From a virus (Duplodnaviria; Caudoviricetes), in the IMG/VR virus record IMGVR_UViG_3300035670_000217, positions 1 to 60,937 of that record: a stretch of DNA of 60,937 nt. One strand, 5' to 3'. Both the position numbers and the translations under genes were made by a program. The notes beneath the pieces were generated by a model. It made no database searches. It saw only the letters and a program-made list of their open reading frames with translations, and had not been told where the DNA came from. Of the stretch, positions 1 to 35,430 are shown piece after piece. The stretch's first letter is position 1. Each line of letters starts with the position of its first letter.

Positions 1-127
1 GCAAGGACGTAGGCCCCGCCTACATAACCGGGACCCTACGATTTTATCAGCCCTACGGCGTGAGCAGCGGCATCCTGTGCCGCGCATGCAAGTTGAAGTT
101 CCTGACCCGTTACCTCAATGAACTCCG
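1..127. repeat. 127-bp direct repeat, copy 1 (identical to 60703-60829); probable circularisation/assembly overlap
   Basis: GCAAGGACGTAGG...CAATGAACTCCG matches 60703-60829 base for base; the copies diverge at the next base. Confidence 0.95.
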
Positions 128-7400: not shown

Positions 7401-10400
7401 TGGGTCCAGTAGGTGATCCGCCCGATGTCCCGGGTCACGCCGCTATCGAAGTCGGCGACGAAGGACTCAGGCTTGACCGACAGGGCGCGCTGGGCCTCGG
7501 CCACGGCGCGCCGCACCTCCTGGCGCCGCACGTCCTCGGGGACCGGGTTGCCCTCGGCGTCGACCATGCCGCCCTCGTCCGCCCGGGCGGTCACGGCCAG
7601 GGCCGGGCTGGCGGCCATCTCGCCGTTGCGCAGGGCGGCAGCGGCCAGGGCGCGGAGCTGTGCCGGGCTCACCTGGCCGAGTTGGATGCCGAAGGTGCGC
7701 ATCGCCCACGCCTTCACGCGGCCCACCATGTCGTTGACCCACGCCTTGAGGGTGCGCGGCGCAGCCTCGTAGGCCTCGATGGCGTAGGCGCCGAACTCCT
7801 CGATGCGGCGCTGCTCGCCCATGGCGTCGCCGGCGGCCTCGGCGGCCTCGATGCGCTGGCGGGCGGCGGCGAAGAAGTCACCGGCGGCCCCGGGGCTGCG
7901 GCTGTACTGGCGGTACAGGGCGGCCAGGCGGCCCTGCAGCTCGTTCCAGGCCTTGGTGCCGATCAGCGGGCGCGCGCCGGCATGGAAGGCCTCGTGCAGC
8001 AGGGCCGGCAGGATCGTCTCTGGCGTCAGGTTGCGGGCGACCAGGGTGATGGTGCCGTCTGCATCCACGTAGGCCTGGGTGCCGCGCGGCAGGTTGGCCG
8101 GAACGTGGTTGAGCACCTGGATCTTGCCGCTGGCGATCATGGCGTCGGCGGCCTCGCCCAGCTCTGACTGCATCAGGCGCTGGACCACCTCGGCATCACC
8201 CATCCGCGGCGTCCGCTCACGGTTGGCGGCCACCGATCTGGCGGTCGCGGAACGCATCTGCGCGCGGGCCGCTGCCGGCTCCTGGATCGCGCCGGTTACC
8301 TCCAACTGCCCTTCAACCAGCTCGCCGCGCAGCACGACCGGGCGGTTGTCGCGGTCGCGCACCGCCTCCAGGGCGATGAAGCCATCCTGGTTGGAGACCG
8401 CGCCGGTGGTGGTGTAGGCCTCGCCGTCGACCTCGTAGGTGCGCACGCCGGTCGATTCGCGGTTCTCGAAGTTGCCGAGCTTGCGATTGCGCTCGGCAGC
8501 GATATAGCGGTTCTCCCGCTCACCCCGGGCAGTGTCGGCGTGGTACTCGGCGAAGGCCACCTGGATCGCGTACCACTGCTGAAGCTCGGCCAGCTCGTTG
8601 ACGCGACTCTCGTCGACGCTCTGCTCGGCGACCTCGGCCTCACGCGGCTGGCGGCGCTCCAGCTCGGCCAGGTACTGGCGCTGGCTGTCGAGAGCGAGGG
8701 CCAGCTCGCGGGTCAGGTGGGCGGGCTCCAGGGCGGCACGGAAGCTGCTGGAATCCTCGGGCTTGGCCGCGGTGTGGCCGACGCTGAAATGACGTTCGCC
8801 GGTGGCCTCCAGGTAGAGGTTGGTGTTGATCACGTCCTTGCCGTAGCCAGGCGCGCGCTCCAGGGTCAGGTTGATGGTGCCGAGCTTCACGCTGACCCGC
8901 TTGGACATGTCCTTGGGTCCGGCGGCCACGTCGGCTAGGGCCTTCTGCCACAGCCGGGCGTAGGCCGACTTCTCCACCACCTCCTTGCTGAAGATATGCG
9001 GGCGGCTCGGGCGGGCAGGCAGTGGCGGCAGCTTGGTGTCACCGCGGGCAACGGCCTTCTCGCGCTTGGCCTCGGCCAGTGGCAGCTTGGCCTGGTAGTC
9101 GGCATAGGCCTCCTCGAAGGCGGCCATCGCCTCGGCCATGGCGGCGTCATGCTCGGCCACGCTGGCGGTCTCGCCGGCAAAGGAGAGATCGCCCAGCGCC
9201 TGGGGCTCCAGGCCAGCAATGGTCGCCTCGAGCTTGGCCTTGCGCTCGGGGTAGTCGCGCAGGAAGCGCTTGGCGTTATCGACGGAGATGGCGCGGCCAC
9301 TGGTCTCGGCGCGCGCCTCGGTGAGATCCCGCTCGGCCTCGAGCTTGAGGCGGAACACCGGGTTGCCGGTGGACGAGGCCATGAACTCGGCATACTGGTC
9401 GGCATCGCCTTCCGCCTCGCTCATGCTGTCGAGGCCGCCGATGCGGAACTGCTCGATGGCGCCAGCCTTGCGCTCCAGGATCTGCCACATCACGGTGTCG
9501 CTGGTGCCGTTGGTCGAGTAGGCGTGGATCTCCACCTCGAAGCCGTCGGGGTCGCGCTCGTAGAGCTTGTTGCCCTGGCGAATGATGCGGCCCTCGCGCT
9601 GCTCCACGTCAGAGGGGCGCCACGGGGCGTCCAGGTGGTGCAGGGCGACCAGGCGCTCCTGGACGTTGGTGCCGGCCCCCATCTTCGGGGTAGAGCCGAT
9701 CAGCACGCGCACCGCGCCGGCGTTGACCCGGGCGAACAGGCGCTGCTTCTTCTCGGGGGTGTTGTAGTCGTGGATGAACGCGATCTCCCCGGCGGGGATG
9801 CCCATCTCGATCAGCACTTCGCGCAGGTCGTCGTAGACCGAGAAGCCGGTGTCGGCGGTCTGCATCTCGACCTCGAACTCCTGGGCCTGGGCGAAGAACG
9901 CCTCGATCTTCTCCAGCTTGTCGCCGGCCAGGGCCGGGTCGGCCATCACGTCCTCGGAGAGCGCCACGGTCTGCTTCCACTGCTCCATGAACGGCAGGTC
10001 GCGCATGGCCTTCATGCGGGCGCGCGCCACCTTGTCGTTGAACAGCAGAGTCAGGGCGTCGCGGACGATCTTGCGCGCGTTCTTGCCGGCCTGCTTGGCC
10101 GGGGTGGACAGGTCGCTGAACACGAGCTGGGTGCCGCGGTCGTCGCTCCAGCGGTCGTAGATGTCCTTGATGCGCCGAGCCGAGCGCATCACCTTGCCGT
10201 TGTCGTCGCGCGCCGCCTGGGGGTCCACGGTGCGGATGTCGAGGGACATCTTGCGCGCATCGGAGAGCACCCACAGCGGGTTGTCGATCTTGGCGTACTC
10301 GGGATCTTGCTTGTTGGCCTCGATTCCCTGCATCCGAGCCACGAGGTAGTCCATGAACTCGGCCTGCTGCGGGGTGATCGCCGAGGTATCGAGCTGGCGG

Positions 10401-29952: not shown

Positions 29953-30381
29953 TCAGTGAACGCCAGCCGCGGCGTACTGCAGCAGCAGGACCACGGTGCC
30001 GGCGCCCGCCCCGGAGAGGGTCAGGCCGATAGCCACATCGGTCTCGCCGGCCTCCAGCAGGAACGCCTCGGGCGCCACGAGGCGGGACACTCCGGCCGCG
30101 GCGCCGCCGAACATCTCGGTGCCAACGGTGGAAACCTCGGTGACCTCACCGGGGGCGGCGTCGATCAGGCCGACATTGGCGGTGACGGCAGCCAGATCGG
30201 GAGCGATCAGGGTGGCGTCAACGACGCGGCAGTAGGCGGGCAGGATGCCCAGCTCCACCACGTCGCCGCCAGTCACCAGGCCGGCGTCGATGGTGTAGCG
30301 CACCGCGACGACGTTGCCGGCCTCGGCGGCATAGGGCGCCTGCAGGCGGCCTTTTGCATGCTCAGATTGGATCAGTGCCAT
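29953..30381 (-). CDS. minor capsid / decoration protein
   Basis: Follows the major capsid gene; beta-rich 142 aa. Confidence 0.65.
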   Translation of the reverse strand: MALIQSEHAKGRLQAPYAAEAGNVVAVRYTIDAGLVTGGDVVELGILPAYCRVVDATLIAPDLAAVTANVGLIDAAPGEVTEVSTVGTEMFGGAAAGVSRLVAPEAFLLEAGETDVAIGLTLSGAGAGTVVLLLQYAAAGVH

Positions 30382-30412
30382 TGGTCATTCTCCTCAGCGT
30401 GGAAGTCGATCA

Positions 30413-30433
30413 AGGGGCCGGCTAGCGGCCCCT
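30413..30433 (-). terminator. hairpin downstream of the major capsid gene
   Basis: AGGGGCC-GGCTAGC-GGCCCCT inverted repeat. Confidence 0.5.
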
Positions 30434-30443
30434 GCCGGCGTTA

Positions 30444-31550
30444 CTAGGCGATCGCGTTCGGATCGGCAGCCGCAGTGTCGAGCGACAGCACGCCGAAGTC
30501 CTGGTTGTTGAAGCGGGTCTTCTTGAAGCCGAAGATAGACCCGGCGGCCACGGTGGGCTCGTTGTCGTAGTCCTTCATCTTCTCCTTCCAGGACCAGCGC
30601 ATGCCGCCGCTGGTGCCGTAGGCCACAACACCAGCCTGGCGACCCATGAACAGCGCGCGGCCCGCATGGACATCACCGCCGGCGCCATAGTCGTTGAAGC
30701 GGATGGCGTTGCGGTGCTTGTGCAGGACCACGTTGTTGATCATGCCCAGACCACCCTTGAAGATCGGGTTGTTGCGACCTTCAGCCGCAGCCGCCGCCTT
30801 CTGGATGTCGAGCCAGCCCTGGCCGCCCTCGGACATGCGGAGGTCGTGGGCCTGGAACGGGGACATGACGGTGACGTAGTGATCCTCGCCGTCGATGGAC
30901 ACCGGCACCATGTTGGCAGACTCGGGATCTTGCGCCTGCAGCATGGTCGCCTTGACCTCGGCGCGCTCGATCAGCTCGCGCGACATCTTGTCGGCACTGG
31001 TCAGGGTGTCCTTGCTGGTGGCGCTGCCGCCATACAGCAGGTGACCGGCATCCGGGGCCTGCAGCGGGTTGCCGGCACGGCCAGCCCACGAGAGCGGGAA
31101 GTTGAAGTCCGGGTTGATGCCGCGGGCGCCAGACAGGTAGATGAACATCATCTCGTCCATGAACATGGACCAGTAATCGGACAGGCGATTCTTGGCAGTC
31201 TGGCGGAGGTTGATGCTGGTGCGCTTGCGGGTCATCTGGCCGCCGGCGGATACCGCGTGGCGGGTCTGGTCGATCATCACCTCGTCGGTGAAGAAGCGCA
31301 GTTGCTCCTCTTTGCCCTCGAGGCGAGCGTCGCCCTCGGTGGCCTGGCCGCGGAGCTGCACGGAGAGGTCGAAGGAGATGCGGTCACCAGGGGAAGTCTC
31401 CAGCTCGGTCTTGCGCTGGATCACGGCGTTGTCGCCATCGCCGATGAACTTCTTCTCGAAGTAGGACTTCTTCGCCTGGTCTACGGCCAGAGCCGCCGAC
31501 CACTTCTTCTGAGTCTTGGGATCGTTTTTCCCGAAAATAGTCTGTGCCAT
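30444..31550 (-). CDS. major capsid protein (N4-gp56 / DUF4043 type)
   Basis: 368 aa; GDRISFDLSVQL, LEGKEE.L.F, IDQTRHAV, NPIFKG.LG motifs; follows the scaffold. Confidence 0.9.
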   Translation of the reverse strand: MAQTIFGKNDPKTQKKWSAALAVDQAKKSYFEKKFIGDGDNAVIQRKTELETSPGDRISFDLSVQLRGQATEGDARLEGKEEQLRFFTDEVMIDQTRHAVSAGGQMTRKRTSINLRQTAKNRLSDYWSMFMDEMMFIYLSGARGINPDFNFPLSWAGRAGNPLQAPDAGHLLYGGSATSKDTLTSADKMSRELIERAEVKATMLQAQDPESANMVPVSIDGEDHYVTVMSPFQAHDLRMSEGGQGWLDIQKAAAAAEGRNNPIFKGGLGMINNVVLHKHRNAIRFNDYGAGGDVHAGRALFMGRQAGVVAYGTSGGMRWSWKEKMKDYDNEPTVAAGSIFGFKKTRFNNQDFGVLSLDTAAADPNAIA

Positions 31551-31615
31551 AGGAGTGGCCTCGCTGAATGTGAGTGTTCACGATTCGCTCGGCACTCCTG
31601 CGCCTTGCTGCGTGC

Positions 31616-31644
31616 ATTATCGAACAGTAATAGGCATTGCACAA
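31616..31644 (-). promoter_or_regulatory. sigma70-like promoter for the capsid gene
   Basis: TTGTGC-17 nt-GATAAT. Confidence 0.6.
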
Positions 31645-31657
31645 CCTCGCGGGCGGG

Positions 31658-31861
31658 TCAATACCGACGATCCACCCCGCCCAGTCCGGCCATAGCCGCG
31701 ATCTTGGCCGGGGCGCCATCCACCTTGCGGATGGGGATGCTCTTGTCGGCCTCAAACGACAAGCGAGCGATCTGGCCCGACTTCTCCTCCAGGGTCAGCA
31801 CGACACCATCGCCGATGGTAACGGACTCCCCCGGCCTGACCTCGAGCTTCAACACGCTCAT
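31658..31861 (-). CDS. CsrA/RsmA-like RNA-binding protein
   Basis: 67 aa; L.V.RPGESVTIGDGVVLT...SGQIARLSFEADKSIPIR resembles the CsrA fold signature. Confidence 0.7.
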   Translation of the reverse strand: MSVLKLEVRPGESVTIGDGVVLTLEEKSGQIARLSFEADKSIPIRKVDGAPAKIAAMAGLGGVDRRY

Positions 31862-31883
31862 GGAGCATCCCCCTCCTGGTGGG

Positions 31884-32861
31884 TTACTGGCTCAGGTATT
31901 CCTCGACGAGCCGCGGATTGGTGGCGGAAAGGCGCGCCAGCTCGGCCTCCAGCTCCAGGCCATCCAACTTGTCGAGCTTGGCGAAACGCCCACCCTCGTC
32001 TGCCGCCGTCATGTCGCTGGCCGGCACGTTGGCCAGGGTCGGCGGCACGTTGCGGCGCTCGGCCTTCTTGGCCTTCTTGGCGGGCTCCTGCTTGGGCTCC
32101 TCGATCGCCTCCTTCTTGCCCATAGGGATGTCGGCGGCGATGTTCTCGTGGGCCTTGGCCAGGATCTCGGCGCCGGTCATGCGCTGCGCCTCCTCGGTCT
32201 GGGCCAGGGTCTTTACCTCGATGTCCAGGAGGCGATACATCCGTTCGGACTGGCGGTAGTCCGGGTGGTCATCCAGGAAGCCGTTGACGGTATCGATCCA
32301 CTCCTGCTTGGCGCGGTTCTCCTCCATCTCACGGGCCAGGTTGGCCTTGAACACCTGCTGCTCCAGCTCCTGCTTGCTGGCCTGGGTCTCCTTGACGGCC
32401 TGACGGTACTCCTGGGTGGTCAGCTCGCCGTCGTCGAACTCGCTGTCGAGCTGGGTCAGCTTCTCGTCGAACTCGCGCAGCTTGTCCTCGTAGCCCTCCG
32501 GGAGGTCGGCGTTCAGCAGCGGGGCAGGCTGTTGGGGCTTCGCGGCAGGCGCCGGCGCGGGCTCCTCCTCGGGCTCCTCCTGGGCAGGCTCGTCCTCCGG
32601 CTTGTCGTCACCGGCCTTGGCGTCGTCCTCTCCAGCATCATCGCCCTCGGCAGGATCGCCCTCGCCATCGTCGTCATCAGCGCCAGCATCGCCGTCATCG
32701 GGCTCCTCCTCGTCTTCCTCCTCGTCTTCGTCATCGTCCCAAGGGTCGACGGGCTCCTCCTCGTTCTCGGCGTCGTACTCCGGGCCGAGTTCTTCCAGGG
32801 CGCGGCGCTCGTCCTCGGTCAGTAGGGCGAGTTCTTCCTCGGTCAATATGCTTCCAGCCAT
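31884..32861 (-). CDS. capsid scaffolding protein
   Basis: Very acidic N-terminus plus coiled coil; between portal and capsid. Confidence 0.75.
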   Translation of the reverse strand: MAGSILTEEELALLTEDERRALEELGPEYDAENEEEPVDPWDDDEDEEEDEEEPDDGDAGADDDDGEGDPAEGDDAGEDDAKAGDDKPEDEPAQEEPEEEPAPAPAAKPQQPAPLLNADLPEGYEDKLREFDEKLTQLDSEFDDGELTTQEYRQAVKETQASKQELEQQVFKANLAREMEENRAKQEWIDTVNGFLDDHPDYRQSERMYRLLDIEVKTLAQTEEAQRMTGAEILAKAHENIAADIPMGKKEAIEEPKQEPAKKAKKAERRNVPPTLANVPASDMTAADEGGRFAKLDKLDGLELEAELARLSATNPRLVEEYLSQ

Positions 32862-32863
32862 GA

Positions 32864-33151
32864 TCATTCCTCCGGGATTGTGACGGGTTGCGGCTGGGCC
32901 ACGGCGCGCACCAGGGCCATGAAGCCGCGTTCGATATCGGTCTTGGCCATGGCGTGCCAGCGCGGCGCCTCGGCGAAGTCCTGGCGGTCGCGCTCCTCAC
33001 GGCCACGGTTGCGGGCGACCTCCAGCTCGATCTTGACGCTGCCGACCAGGCTGAGGATCTCGGCCTCGGCGGCCTTGATGCGACGGATCAGGTCGATCTC
33101 GTCCTGGGTGAGATCCCGGTAGCCCGGGATCTTGCGGTGTTGGTTCTCCAT
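32864..33151 (-). CDS. acb2: Acb2-family anti-CBASS cyclic-oligonucleotide sponge
   Basis: MENQHRKIPGYRDLTQDEID...AEAPRWHAMAKTDIERGFMALVRAVAQP matches recalled Acb2 motifs (NQH..I.GYR.L...EI; RW....KT....G.M...RA.AQP). Confidence 0.85.
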   Translation of the reverse strand: MENQHRKIPGYRDLTQDEIDLIRRIKAAEAEILSLVGSVKIELEVARNRGREERDRQDFAEAPRWHAMAKTDIERGFMALVRAVAQPQPVTIPEE

Positions 33152-33165
33152 CCTGCCTCCTCTCG

Positions 33166-35430
33166 TTACATCGGCTGCTCAGGGGCGGGCGCCCCGAACT
33201 CCTGGGCTTGCGCCTGCAGGCCTTCCATCACGGCCCCGGCGCGCTGCTGCATCTCCTGCTCGGCGGCCGCCTGCTGCTCGGCGCGCATCTGGTCCTCGGC
33301 CTGGGCCTGCTGGCGGGCCTCGATCTCGGTGCGGGACAGGTAACCGGCCTCCCGCAGTAGCTTGTCGGCCACGCGCAGCACCTGGGGCGACAGCATGGCC
33401 ACCTGGGCGCTCTCCATGGCGGTCTTCTGGGTGTCGACGTTGGTCCCGGCGAGCTGGGCGGCAATGCGCTGGGCCTCGGCCTCGGTCTTGCCGGCCTTGG
33501 CGAGCTGCTCGCGGAGCTGGGCCTCGAGCATCTGCTGCTGCATCTGCTGCTGGTACTGCTGCTGCTCCATGGCCGCGATCTCCTCCGGGGTCAACTCGGT
33601 GGCGTCCGGGTCGCGCTGGCCGCTGATCTGGCGGATGCGCTTCACGATCTCGTCGCGGTTCGGCACGTCCATCGCCTCAACGATCAGGTCAAGCATGACG
33701 ATGGCGACCTCGGGCGGCATCCGGGTGACCATCTCCATGAGCTGATCGGCCTGGGCCTGGCGCATGGTGGCGCGCCACTCGTCCTCGGAGATCACGAAGT
33801 CGGCCTTGGTGCGGTGGATGTCGTGCTCGGGCAGGCCGTCGTTGACCTCAACGAAGTCGGCGCTGCCACGCTGGTTGGTGATGCGGAACACCTTGTGCTC
33901 GGTGAAATACTGCTCGACCAGGGAGAGCTGGTTCTCGCCCTGGATCTGCAGGGCCAGGCGCATGTTGTCGAACAGCTTGGCGGTGGACATCATGCCCTGC
34001 TGCTGACGGTTCTCGATGGCCCTGCCCGACTGGGCGTTGGTGGTGCGCCCCATCAGCTCGTCGGTGACGCCGGACACCTGCTGAATCATCGCAATGTTGC
34101 GGCCCATCATGTCCAGGTGGGATTGCTCCAGCCCGCGGTCGGCGTTGATCTCCAGCGCCTTGCCGGGGTTCTTGATGATGATCCCGTCCGGGCGGGCGAC
34201 CTCCTCGGCGTACTCCTGGAGGTCATCGACCGCGCCCTTGTCCATGATGGTCTTGTTGGTGGCCATGATGTACTGGGCCTTGGAGGCGCGCTTGTTGATG
34301 TCCTCCTGGATGTCGCGCAGGCCGCGGATCACACCGTAGGGCAGTCCATCGCGGTCACGGCGATAGCCCCAGATAGGCGTGAAGGGAAAGCGGTTGTGGC
34401 GGTAGGGTGACTCGCCGAGATAGCACATCCCCTTGGTGGTCATGATGGCGCAGTGCATCCGCATGTGGAGCTTCTCGGCCACCACGGAGCTGCCGGCCTC
34501 GACGCTGGCGGCCATGTCTGGGTTGCTGGGATCGAACACGTCGCCCGCGAAGTCGCCGGCCACGATCTTGGGCGCACGGGTGGGCCGGCGGAACCAGACT
34601 TCGATCAGGCGCACGCGGCGGCGGTGGTAGCCAGGGTCCGTCATGCCGTCCAGGCGCATATCCAGCGACATCTCGGCCTGGTCCATGGCTTCATCAGCGT
34701 CGCGCCCGATACCGTCGGTGCCGTAGGCGCTCTCGGCGCTGGCCGACTCCTCCAGCATCTGCTCGCGATCGGGGAACAGGGCGATCGCCACGTCCAGGTC
34801 GACCCACTTGGTGCGAGTCACATAGCGCGAGTCGCTGAGGTCCAGCTCGGTGCTGGCGCTGTCCCACATGACGTTGCGCCAGCTCTCGTAGCGGCTGTAT
34901 ACCGGCTCGCCGTCGTCGTCATCCTGCACGCCGTCCTCGACCCAGCCCACGCCGACCTTCACCGCGTCCTCGAAGGCACGGGAGCGGTGGAAGGGGGTGC
35001 GGTTCACGTCGGACAGGTACTTGAGTAGGGCGGTCTTCTGCTCGGCGGGCTTGGCGTCCTCCTTGCCGCGGGGCAGCACCTTGAAGTCGATGCGGCCGCG
35101 CTTCTCGGAGCCGATGATCCAGTTCACGCTCTGCGAGATCACGTTGTAGACCATCGGGGCCTGGCCACGCTCGCGCAGGATGGCGGCATCCTCGTCGGTC
35201 CACTGGATGTGGTCGTAGAAGTCGGCGTCGATCGCCATCTGCGCCCGGTTCTCGTACTGCCGGTCGATCTCCTGGCGGTAGTAGCTCAGGAGCTTGCGGT
35301 GCAGCTCCTCGTTCTCGGCGCTGTCCAGCTCATGCTCGGGCGCGTCGTCTTCCTCCTCCTCGAAGCCGGGGTATTCGCCGGTGTTCTGGGCGGGGTCAGG
35401 GCGCTTGATGTGGCGTTCATTCTCGAACAT
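33166..35430 (-). CDS. portal protein (P22-like podovirus type)
   Basis: 754 aa; QW, RGQAP.VYN, AVKVGVGW, PY.HNRFPFTP, G.PYGVIR.L.D.QEDINKR.SK, SG.AI motifs. Confidence 0.9.
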   Translation of the reverse strand: MFENERHIKRPDPAQNTGEYPGFEEEEDDAPEHELDSAENEELHRKLLSYYRQEIDRQYENRAQMAIDADFYDHIQWTDEDAAILRERGQAPMVYNVISQSVNWIIGSEKRGRIDFKVLPRGKEDAKPAEQKTALLKYLSDVNRTPFHRSRAFEDAVKVGVGWVEDGVQDDDDGEPVYSRYESWRNVMWDSASTELDLSDSRYVTRTKWVDLDVAIALFPDREQMLEESASAESAYGTDGIGRDADEAMDQAEMSLDMRLDGMTDPGYHRRRVRLIEVWFRRPTRAPKIVAGDFAGDVFDPSNPDMAASVEAGSSVVAEKLHMRMHCAIMTTKGMCYLGESPYRHNRFPFTPIWGYRRDRDGLPYGVIRGLRDIQEDINKRASKAQYIMATNKTIMDKGAVDDLQEYAEEVARPDGIIIKNPGKALEINADRGLEQSHLDMMGRNIAMIQQVSGVTDELMGRTTNAQSGRAIENRQQQGMMSTAKLFDNMRLALQIQGENQLSLVEQYFTEHKVFRITNQRGSADFVEVNDGLPEHDIHRTKADFVISEDEWRATMRQAQADQLMEMVTRMPPEVAIVMLDLIVEAMDVPNRDEIVKRIRQISGQRDPDATELTPEEIAAMEQQQYQQQMQQQMLEAQLREQLAKAGKTEAEAQRIAAQLAGTNVDTQKTAMESAQVAMLSPQVLRVADKLLREAGYLSRTEIEARQQAQAEDQMRAEQQAAAEQEMQQRAGAVMEGLQAQAQEFGAPAPEQPM

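Follow-up and report, generated by a model that had tools for sequence, protein, structure and literature searches.

CsrA-family proteins can switch translation on as well as off. The closest described counterpart of the element reported here is the leader of Escherichia coli ymdA, which CsrA is described as activating by destabilizing a hairpin that sequesters the Shine-Dalgarno (SD) sequence (Renda et al., 2020, PMC7492729). Among phages, the Com protein of Mu is presented as an activator of mom translation (PMC6483171), and knock-down of gp28, the csrA homologue of the E. coli phage PTXU04, is reported to produce smaller plaques (PMC11879866), so a phage CsrA can matter for lytic growth. 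Accounts of the csrA-like gene treated here call it a moron of unknown role, as in JC1 (PMC9144972) and CSP3 (PMC10269572), list it among phage csrA alleles (PMC7366521) or propose that it manipulates the host or its CRISPR defense (PMC8450108). We analyzed the virus record IMGVR_UViG_3300035670_000217, a complete Bcep22-like podophage genome of 60,937 nucleotides (nt) whose full length is called the window here, in which a csrA-like gene lies directly upstream of the major capsid gene. The leader of the capsid mRNA proved to be a true RNA element with two states, conserved widely and linked to the CsrA-like gene of the phage. A literature search found no description of this leader motif.

Two exclusive folds of the capsid leader

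A sequence-only reading of the window had proposed that the ~60-nt capsid leader is a translational switch operated by a CsrA-type protein. All of its statements about the leader sequence (ATG, CACTCCT, AGGAGTG, the 12-nt box, the promoter hexamers and GAGG) were correct when we re-read the minus strand: CACTCCT (31557-31551) adjoins the ATG, and AGGAGTG (31599-31593) is its perfect complement. The minimum free energy (MFE) structure of the 76-nt leader is a long stem, P2, in which the 5' arm is paired to GG-C-CACUCCU and an inner hairpin is enclosed. Its energy of -28.3 kcal/mol compares with -18.97 +/- 2.76 kcal/mol for 200 dinucleotide shuffles, none of which was as stable (z -3.38). The proposal that this stem covers the only SD needs amending: P2 lies mainly over the spacer and extends to the AUG, and of the SD only two G's are paired. 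The competing hairpin, P1, is formed by the box GCGC-AGGA-GUGC. P1 and P2 share GUGC, the 3' half of the box being the 5' arm of P2, and this overlap makes the two structures mutually exclusive. In the free RNA the nucleotides of the box loop are buried in P2.

To compare leaders we used the capsid protein as a query and gathered 112 loci, 80 from viral contigs (the best 80 of 138 relatives) and 32 from genomes, and added seven isolate phages that have both genes (Bcep22, DC1, JC1, GP4, Skulduggery, Itty13 and Parlo). The set contains 83 unique leaders, window and isolates included. Among the 112 loci the box was present in 93, absent from 13 and found only in a diverged version in one (L005); the remaining five were truncated and not evaluable (L021, L052, L070, L105 and L106). 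Thus, 93 of the 107 evaluable loci carry the box, 28-80 nt before the capsid ATG and at capsid identities down to about 40%. L005 has no pattern match to the box; its hairpin has diverged, with AUGAC as the loop, and a stem of its own occludes the start. One further locus with the box (L102) was left out of the duplex analyses because its start codon had been mis-assigned.

The box, GCGCA-N-GA-(N)-GUGC, is near-invariant while the rest of the leader diverges (G79 C82 G83 C83 A80 N G77 A80 (N) G83 U77 G82 C73 in the 83 leaders). The variable loop base is G in 39 leaders, U in 26 and A in 18, and an optional base is inserted in 43. By these counts the invariant loop is A-N-G-A and not GGA, which the sequence-only reading had taken to be the conserved loop element. 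Loops of the GGA type occur in Burkholderia and Ralstonia phages, AAGAC in Itty13 (Pseudomonas aeruginosa), Parlo (Serratia) and L039-41 (Klebsiella LASTA-like), and UGGAU in Skulduggery; that such differences insulate the phages from host CsrA is speculative, as few lineages are involved. Two relatives have tandem boxes before the capsid gene (L075:2424-2506 and L078:268-350), GCGCAUGAGCGC followed about 18 nt on by GCGCAUGAGUGC, an arrangement that would suit a dimeric protein with two RNA-binding faces.

The interior of P2 varies among relatives in length and sequence, and an alignment of all leaders made with MAFFT did not recover P2 because the register of its 3' arm relative to the ATG varies. 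Given this shift, we assessed P2 by alignment-free duplexes, by a subset alignment and by a covariance model. Duplexes between a leader's own 5' and 3' arms averaged -17.1 kcal/mol, a mean that none of 5000 permutations reached, against -12.4 kcal/mol with foreign arms. The best duplex extends to the start codon (+2 or beyond) in 72 of the 83 leaders. Within P2 the variable loop base (v1) pairs as GC in 26 leaders, UA in 23, AU in 7 and GU in 3; the inserted base pairs as CG in 19, UA in 9, GC in 4, AU in 4 and UG in 2; and the U/C position of GUGC pairs as UA in 70 and CG in 6. In a MAFFT alignment of the 25 leaders with a thirteen-nt box, which was not fitted to structure, 90.1% of the P2 cells were paired, compared with at most 50.4% when the 3' partner was slid, and one pair appeared as CG 12, UA 7, AU 2 and GC 2. 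A covariance model of narrow reach, built from 16 leaders, gave one match in the window (31548-31605, E 1.6e-10) and 28 matches at E <= 0.06 in 98 sources, all at capsid leaders; relaxing the threshold to E <= 1 added reverse-strand matches on three of the same leaders and two matches elsewhere. The model-fitted alignment had 86.2% of cells paired and double changes in 4 of 9 pairs. The occurrence of all four Watson-Crick types at two P2 positions is hard to explain without compensation. By these comparisons P2 is kept by compensatory changes, and the pairing, whose covariation in phages with csrA-capsid synteny the sequence-only reading had proposed as a check, is both conserved and compensated.

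P1 was recovered directly as the RNAalifold consensus of a 57-sequence MAFFT alignment, with 99.1% of cells paired and double changes in 2 of 4 pairs (3 cells), in agreement with the mutually exclusive hairpin first proposed. Variants that preserve its pairing include GAGC..GUUC in the closest relatives of the window (L001/L002), ACGC..GUGU (L022, L107 and GP4, the latter being L116), CCGC..GUGG (L045) and GCGC..GCGC; in one subfamily P1 is lengthened to 7 base pairs (GGUGCGC-AAGA-GUGCGCC). The evidence for P1 is thinner than that for P2 because the P1 stem hardly varies. Its 5' GCGC half is invariant, and the third base of GCGC is unpaired in P2 in 44 of the 83 leaders; P2 alone is therefore no explanation for the conservation of GCGC.

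Folding of both states indicated how much would be needed to move between them. In the window leader, the free ensemble has an energy of -28.9 kcal/mol and the P1-forced ensemble -24.5 kcal/mol, a cost of 4.4 kcal/mol, and forcing P1 raises the mean unpaired probability from SD to AUG from 0.29 to 0.50. For the 83 leaders taken together, forcing P1 costs a median of 6.8 kcal/mol and takes accessibility from 0.26 to 0.52, with a more open start region in 77 of them, as the sequence-only reading had anticipated. Eleven capsid leaders of related phages that lack the box had a median of -10.5 kcal/mol over the same 82-nt span, compared to -26.0 kcal/mol for box leaders, and a start accessibility of 0.51 rather than 0.26 (Mann-Whitney p 3e-5, with rows that are not independent). 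The predicted P1 state thus resembles an unregulated leader, and the box leaders, which precede the gene of the most abundant virion protein, would be off by default. A nanomolar RNA-binding protein can supply energy beside which the gap between the two leader states is small. The computed energetics fit a switch.

Within the 60.9-kb window the exact 12-nt box has a single match and there is one proper box. The window holds no further copy of either the box or its complement that could act in trans, and a scan of its whole length detected no other box-like hairpin followed by a proper start. Degenerate 13-nt matches at 9257 (+) and 38322 (-) were rejected as targets, as they lie inside coding sequence with no proper start downstream. 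One-mismatch matches to the degenerate 13-nt box numbered 17 in the window against 7.9 expected, a count that none of 100 shuffles reached; this excess may be an effect of GC-rich codon usage. A permissive Rfam 15 scan of 30000-33500 gave no match on the leader. Its six matches were to eukaryotic or archaeal families at 14.6-19.6 bits, far under the gathering scores, and one of them (RMST_1, 31498-31546) lies inside the capsid open reading frame (ORF).

The sequence-only reading had also placed a promoter ahead of the leader. Both hexamers and the 17-nt spacer are present, and a similar element (TTGNNN-16..18-NANN[A/T]T) occurs in 33 of the 83 leaders, ending 10-17 nt before the box in 32 and 27 nt before it in one. 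A strict sigma-70 scan of 30300-33300 called no promoter; it misses this one because TTGTGC fits only 3 of 6 positions of the -35 consensus. Hence, a capsid promoter TTGTGC-17-GATAAT, as a weaker element conserved in position, is plausible but unproven. The box would start about 5-7 nt after the transcription start so predicted.

The CsrA-like gene and its association with the box

The 67-amino acid (aa) protein encoded upstream of the capsid gene matched the Pfam CsrA family (PF02599) over residues 4-44 with 28.0 bits (cut-off 27, E 2.2e-6) and the PHROG family phrog_8397, 'CsrA-like regulator' (E 4.7e-18). A profile of 52 members of the phage family in turn matched RsmE (2jpp, E 4.5e-11) and CsrA (1y00, E 5.8e-7) in the PDB. 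Its phage relatives are 55-91 aa long and share a near-invariant G11, G17, K27 and G29, all in the N-terminal core. With its size of 67 aa and a conserved core within the first ~45 residues, the protein is a CsrA-family member by sequence criteria, as the sequence-only reading had it. A homodimer prediction scored 0.36, against a mark of 0.42 and with one control at 0.35. When used as a query against a phage collection, the protein retrieved 48 records (31 Ralstonia, 10 Burkholderia, 5 Pseudomonas and 2 Serratia); in the records examined, the capsid gene is preceded by this gene, under the label 'CsrA-like regulator' or 'carbon storage regulator'. The two genes are direct neighbors in Bcep22, JC1, Skulduggery, Itty13 and Parlo, whereas the csrA-capsid gap holds a small annotated minus-strand ORF in DC1 and one inserted gene in GP4.

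We then searched all ORFs of the loci iteratively with a profile of the csrA-like family. Such an ORF lies upstream of the capsid gene in 82 of the 93 box loci, at less than 260 nt in 74 and at 450-920 nt in 8. In L116 (GP4; 1774-2061), L011, L012, L016, L024, L026, L050, L101 and L111 one small gene separates the two, and the box stays at the capsid gene and not at csrA. Eleven box loci have no csrA-like ORF within 2.5 kb, yet 8 of them carry it elsewhere in the record or genome, in a record-level search that covered 10 of the 11 (L014 was left out). Among the virus records in this group 3 of 5 hold the gene elsewhere, including both of the complete ones, and the misses are fragments of 7 and 14 kb; all five prophage-bearing genomes hold a single strong match to the family profile. 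In L020/L123 the portal/scaffold-like/csrA-like block is intact and the capsid gene has been relocated together with the box. The box thus moves with the capsid gene, and neither box nor csrA-like gene is lost on their separation.

The converse was also observed, as the 13 loci that lack the box lack the csrA-like gene as well. None of five box-less virus records, two of them complete, contained it, and 2 of 5 box-less whole genomes showed a weak csrA match, probably to the host's own gene, on a different contig. On an unrooted FastTree phylogeny of 116 capsid proteins, the 13 double-lacking loci require only two changes: 12 form a group nested among box-bearing groups and the other, L110, sits beside box-bearing Moraxellaceae phages. 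This is suggestive of two joint losses of box and gene, with the caveat that they are two events on an unrooted tree. The sequence-only reading had left the partner as a phage or a host CsrA. In an account of phage csrA alleles, Burkholderia hosts are reported to lack a chromosomal csrA (PMC7366521), which leaves the phage protein as the sole CsrA-family candidate in those hosts. With that report and the single strong family match in each of the five prophage-bearing genomes, several hosts would have no CsrA of their own, and a host CsrA is an unlikely partner in many hosts.

In alphaproteobacterial relatives, extra leaders with a box and its complement precede other genes (L121, minus strand, ~2675; L126:2794; L128:2846 and 1686; L124:1693 and 3108). 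The gene that follows the box in L121 and L126 encodes a SleB-like cell-wall hydrolase (Pfam Hydrolase_2, E 1.5e-7 and 2.5e-6); the gene downstream of L128:2846 resembles that of L126 by eye, its 79-aa fragment having no Pfam hit, and the box at L124:1693 lies just downstream of a relocated csrA-like gene. These leaders suggest a small regulon in the alphaproteobacterial relatives; the window itself has only the capsid box.

The nearest cultured relatives of the window phage are the Bcep22-like podophages. The minus-strand gene order in the window is portal, a 95-aa protein with an Acb2/Tad1 hairpin domain, a scaffold-like protein, the csrA-like protein and, after a gap of 107 nt, the major capsid protein (Table 1). 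The scaffold-like gene occupies the position of Bcep22 gp52 and JC1 gp46, and a Pfam scan of its product gave no family; we infer a scaffold role for this phrog_8246 protein only from its position and acidic composition. The 95-aa ORF within the head module is a candidate cyclic-nucleotide sponge of the anti-CBASS or anti-Thoeris type.

Table 1. Positions of the leader elements and of the surrounding head genes in the window.
Feature	Position	Strand	Basis or remark
-35-like hexamer TTGTGC, putative capsid promoter	31639..31644	-	Sequence; 3/6 positions of -35 consensus
-10-like hexamer GATAAT	31616..31621	-	17 nt after the -35-like hexamer, 12 nt before the box
Box GCGC-AGGA-GUGC (GCGCAGGAGTGC in DNA, GCGCAGGAGUGC), hairpin P1 of 4 base pairs with AGGA loop	31592..31603	-	Proposed protein-binding site
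P2 5' arm AGGAGUGCC	31591..31599	-	Overlaps 3' half of P1; MFE structure and covariation
P2 interior, inner hairpin GAAU.GUGA/UCAC.AUUC and internal loops	31561..31590	-	MFE structure
SD GAGG	31559..31562	-	8 nt before AUG; its two 3' G's paired in P2
P2 3' arm GG-C-CACUCCU	31551..31560	-	Abuts the start codon
Capsid ATG	31550-31548	-	
Major capsid protein gene, proposed regulated target	30444..31550	-	Pfam Phage_capsid_3 E 8.3e-64; phrog_334 E 2.8e-124
csrA-family gene, 67 aa, proposed trans-acting factor	31658..31861	-	Pfam CsrA; phrog_8397; profile against PDB
Scaffold-like/virion-associated protein gene	31884..32867	-	phrog_8246 E 1.3e-60; directly upstream of the csrA-like gene
95-aa ORF	32864-33151	-	Pfam Acb2/Tad1 hairpin domain E 5.7e-15, 55.7 bits (cut-off 27); phrog_717; between portal and scaffold-like genes
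Portal protein gene	33166..35430	-	Pfam P22_portal E 8e-192; phrog_156 E 8.6e-185; first gene of the portal/scaffold-like/csrA-like block

Proposed activation of capsid translation and its alternatives

The architecture described in the sequence-only reading is supported by the comparative data, and its interpretation is to that extent partly supported. We tentatively favor, with slightly more doubt than confidence, a mechanism in which the phage CsrA-like protein binds P1, frees the start site and activates capsid translation; we infer both the binding and its direction, activation rather than repression. Transcription of the capsid mRNA would begin, from a promoter of its own, a few nt ahead of the box. 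By default the leader would be in P2, with the 3' half of the box paired to the spacer and start-codon region, and ribosomes would be blocked. In the alternative fold, the box would form P1 (stem GCGC/GUGC, loop A-N-G-A), a hairpin of the type clamped by CsrA/RsmE proteins. The phage CsrA-family protein, encoded just upstream at the end of the portal/scaffold-like block, would bind and stabilize P1, withdrawing the anti-start arm from P2 so that ribosomes could load and capsid translation be switched on. Capsid synthesis would in this way be tied to prior expression of the portal/scaffold-like/csrA-like block. Activation is the most economical reading.

Several observations weigh against it. 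The box loop is not strictly GGA, unlike canonical CsrA sites, with a GGA-type first G in only 39 of the 83 leaders. R44 of CsrA/RsmE is an important RNA-contact residue, and the residue aligned to it is R in the phage-family consensus and K in the window protein, which reads I-R-K with the R one position earlier. P1 has only 4 base pairs that are almost invariant, so that few events (3 double-changed cells) underlie its covariation. Phylogeny is not taken into account in the shuffle controls, whose numbers overstate independence, and the co-occurrence of box and gene rests on the few independent events represented by two changes on the tree. Nor is occlusion by P2 uniform across clades: in 11 of the 83 leaders the best duplex falls short of the AUG, and the start is left uncovered in Itty13, Parlo and L039-41, where the 3' arm of P2 terminates immediately 5' of the SD. 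The need for an activator would also be less if ribosomes could stand by on an unstructured U/C/A-rich loop. Furthermore, classical CsrA action is presented as repression by competition with the ribosome (PMC7492729).

The last point leads to the best of the alternatives, which we nevertheless consider unlikely. A CsrA-like dimer could bridge the box and a GGA- or GAG-containing SD, as many SDs of the family are, and block ribosomes by the competition usual for CsrA (PMC7492729), limiting or delaying capsid synthesis; this might keep capsid in proportion to portal and scaffold, for instance, or prevent leaky expression in lysogens. The tandem boxes of L075 and L078 would be expected for a dimer with two RNA sites, and the co-occurrence of box and gene fits repression as well as it fits activation. 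What repression leaves without an account is the strong start-occluding stem that compensatory changes maintain. Binding would also be disfavored by the burial of the box loop in P2 unless P2 opens, and the open leaders of box-less relatives (0.51 versus 0.26) point to box leaders that are already off by default.

It is more improbable still that the leader works without the CsrA-like protein, through a host factor (RNase III, RNase E, S1 or another) or as an operator at the DNA level close to the transcription start, the csrA-like gene being a syntenic passenger. Such a passenger would agree with the papers in which the gene appears as a moron acting on the host (PMC9144972, PMC10269572, PMC8450108), and shared ancestry could account for a co-occurrence that involves only two tree changes; yet both elements are kept together after rearrangement has separated them, and two separate groups, placed within or next to box-bearing ones, have neither. 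Covariation at the RNA level speaks against a purely DNA-level role, and the window offers no second box or complement that could act in trans. Moreover, the box, with its short stem and A-N-G-A loop, is shaped like a CsrA/RsmE site. The box of the window, a short stem with an AGGA loop, resembles the high-affinity CsrA hairpin obtained by systematic evolution of ligands by exponential enrichment (SELEX).

In the P2 loop of some leaders (for example L061, L067, L017, L025 and L113), the SD is closely preceded by a U/C/A-rich stretch, T[TC]AAC(N)TTT, that resembles the 'epsilon' translational enhancer of T7 gene 10. From shuffles, T[TC]AAC would be expected in about 6 of 82 leaders, and 23 have it; the stretch is clade-restricted and is weak in the window. 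Equally improbable as a passenger gene is a role of the leader in mRNA stabilization, in which a 5'-proximal stem-loop, with or without the CsrA-like protein, would shield the transcript from 5'-end-dependent decay while translation proceeds from a standby site in the loop: the box about 5-7 nt after the predicted transcription start (the -10-like element ending 10-17 nt before it in 32 of 83 leaders), the often unstructured U/C/A-rich loop with its excess of T[TC]AAC and the known activation by CsrA through inhibition of RNA degradation (as described in PMC7492729) would all suit it, but it needs neither an invariant 12-nt sequence, nor a stem whose pairing follows the position of the start codon (to +2 or further in 72 of 83 leaders), nor the alternative hairpin P1.

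Relation to known CsrA and phage systems

Activation by the phage protein would have consequences for how the gene is understood. It is possible, if on balance rather doubtful, that Bcep22-like phages carry the csrA-like gene not as a moron that manipulates the host but as one half of a self-contained, portable switch, an activator plus an A-N-G-A hairpin that doubles as an anti-start arm, which gates capsid synthesis. The switch would work in hosts without Csr, its relaxed loop may insulate it from host CsrA, and in some alphaproteobacterial relatives it would perhaps extend to a small late regulon that includes a virion cell-wall hydrolase. If so, phrog_8397, now annotated as a carbon storage regulator and discussed as a moron or a manipulator of host or immunity, would gain a concrete function and a single defined RNA target, and phages would provide an example of CsrA-type translational activation. 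The leader would be a new structured RNA motif absent from Rfam, with at least 83 distinct representatives in phages and prophages of alpha-, beta- and gammaproteobacteria. Control of capsid supply in the order of assembly would explain why the csrA-like gene is fixed in the head-morphogenesis block, and the short, delimited protein-RNA pair could be reused as an orthogonal protein-responsive translational switch.

Other phage-borne CsrA-family genes, such as the F116/RsmM type and PTXU04 gp28, are of another lineage and context. We rejected PTXU04 as a further example of the arrangement, as gp28 neighbors the holin and endolysin genes, on the opposite strand, and the capsid gene follows its neighbor by 22 nt, with no leader. 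F116-like phages were also rejected, since CF63a has no csrA next to the capsid gene. Mu Com is similar in being a small phage protein that binds its cognate mRNA and activates translation. It acts by opening a start-occluding structure of the mom mRNA. Com is, however, a zinc-finger protein unrelated to CsrA, and its target is a DNA-modification gene rather than a capsid gene. Canonical repression by CsrA, RsmA and RsmE (RsmE-hcnA, 2jpp; CsrA, 1y00) involves the same protein family, and the window box has the short stem and AGGA loop of such sites. In the phage leaders, by contrast, the first G of GGA is unconserved, the site is buried in a competing stem, there is no sign of sponge small RNAs and the proposed outcome is activation.

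The closest parallel remains the activation of ymdA by CsrA. Both systems combine a CsrA-family protein with a 5' leader hairpin that blocks ribosomes and with sites whose binding would destabilize that hairpin. Of the features of the ymdA type, the phage leaders show occlusion of the start region (0.26 versus 0.51 in box-less leaders) and, at the level of sequence, a putative protein site that overlaps one arm of the occluding stem. The phage leader differs from that of ymdA in that its site is a single invariant hairpin, the 3' half of which also serves as the anti-start arm, with a loop that is A-N-G-A and not strictly GGA. The protein is phage-encoded and adjoins a single cis target, which is a structural gene, and the module is also found in hosts reported to be without a Csr system. 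Set beside these precedents, the phage system would be an autonomous protein-target pair that brings CsrA-type riboregulation to a capsid gene, through an A-N-G-A loop in place of a strict GGA.

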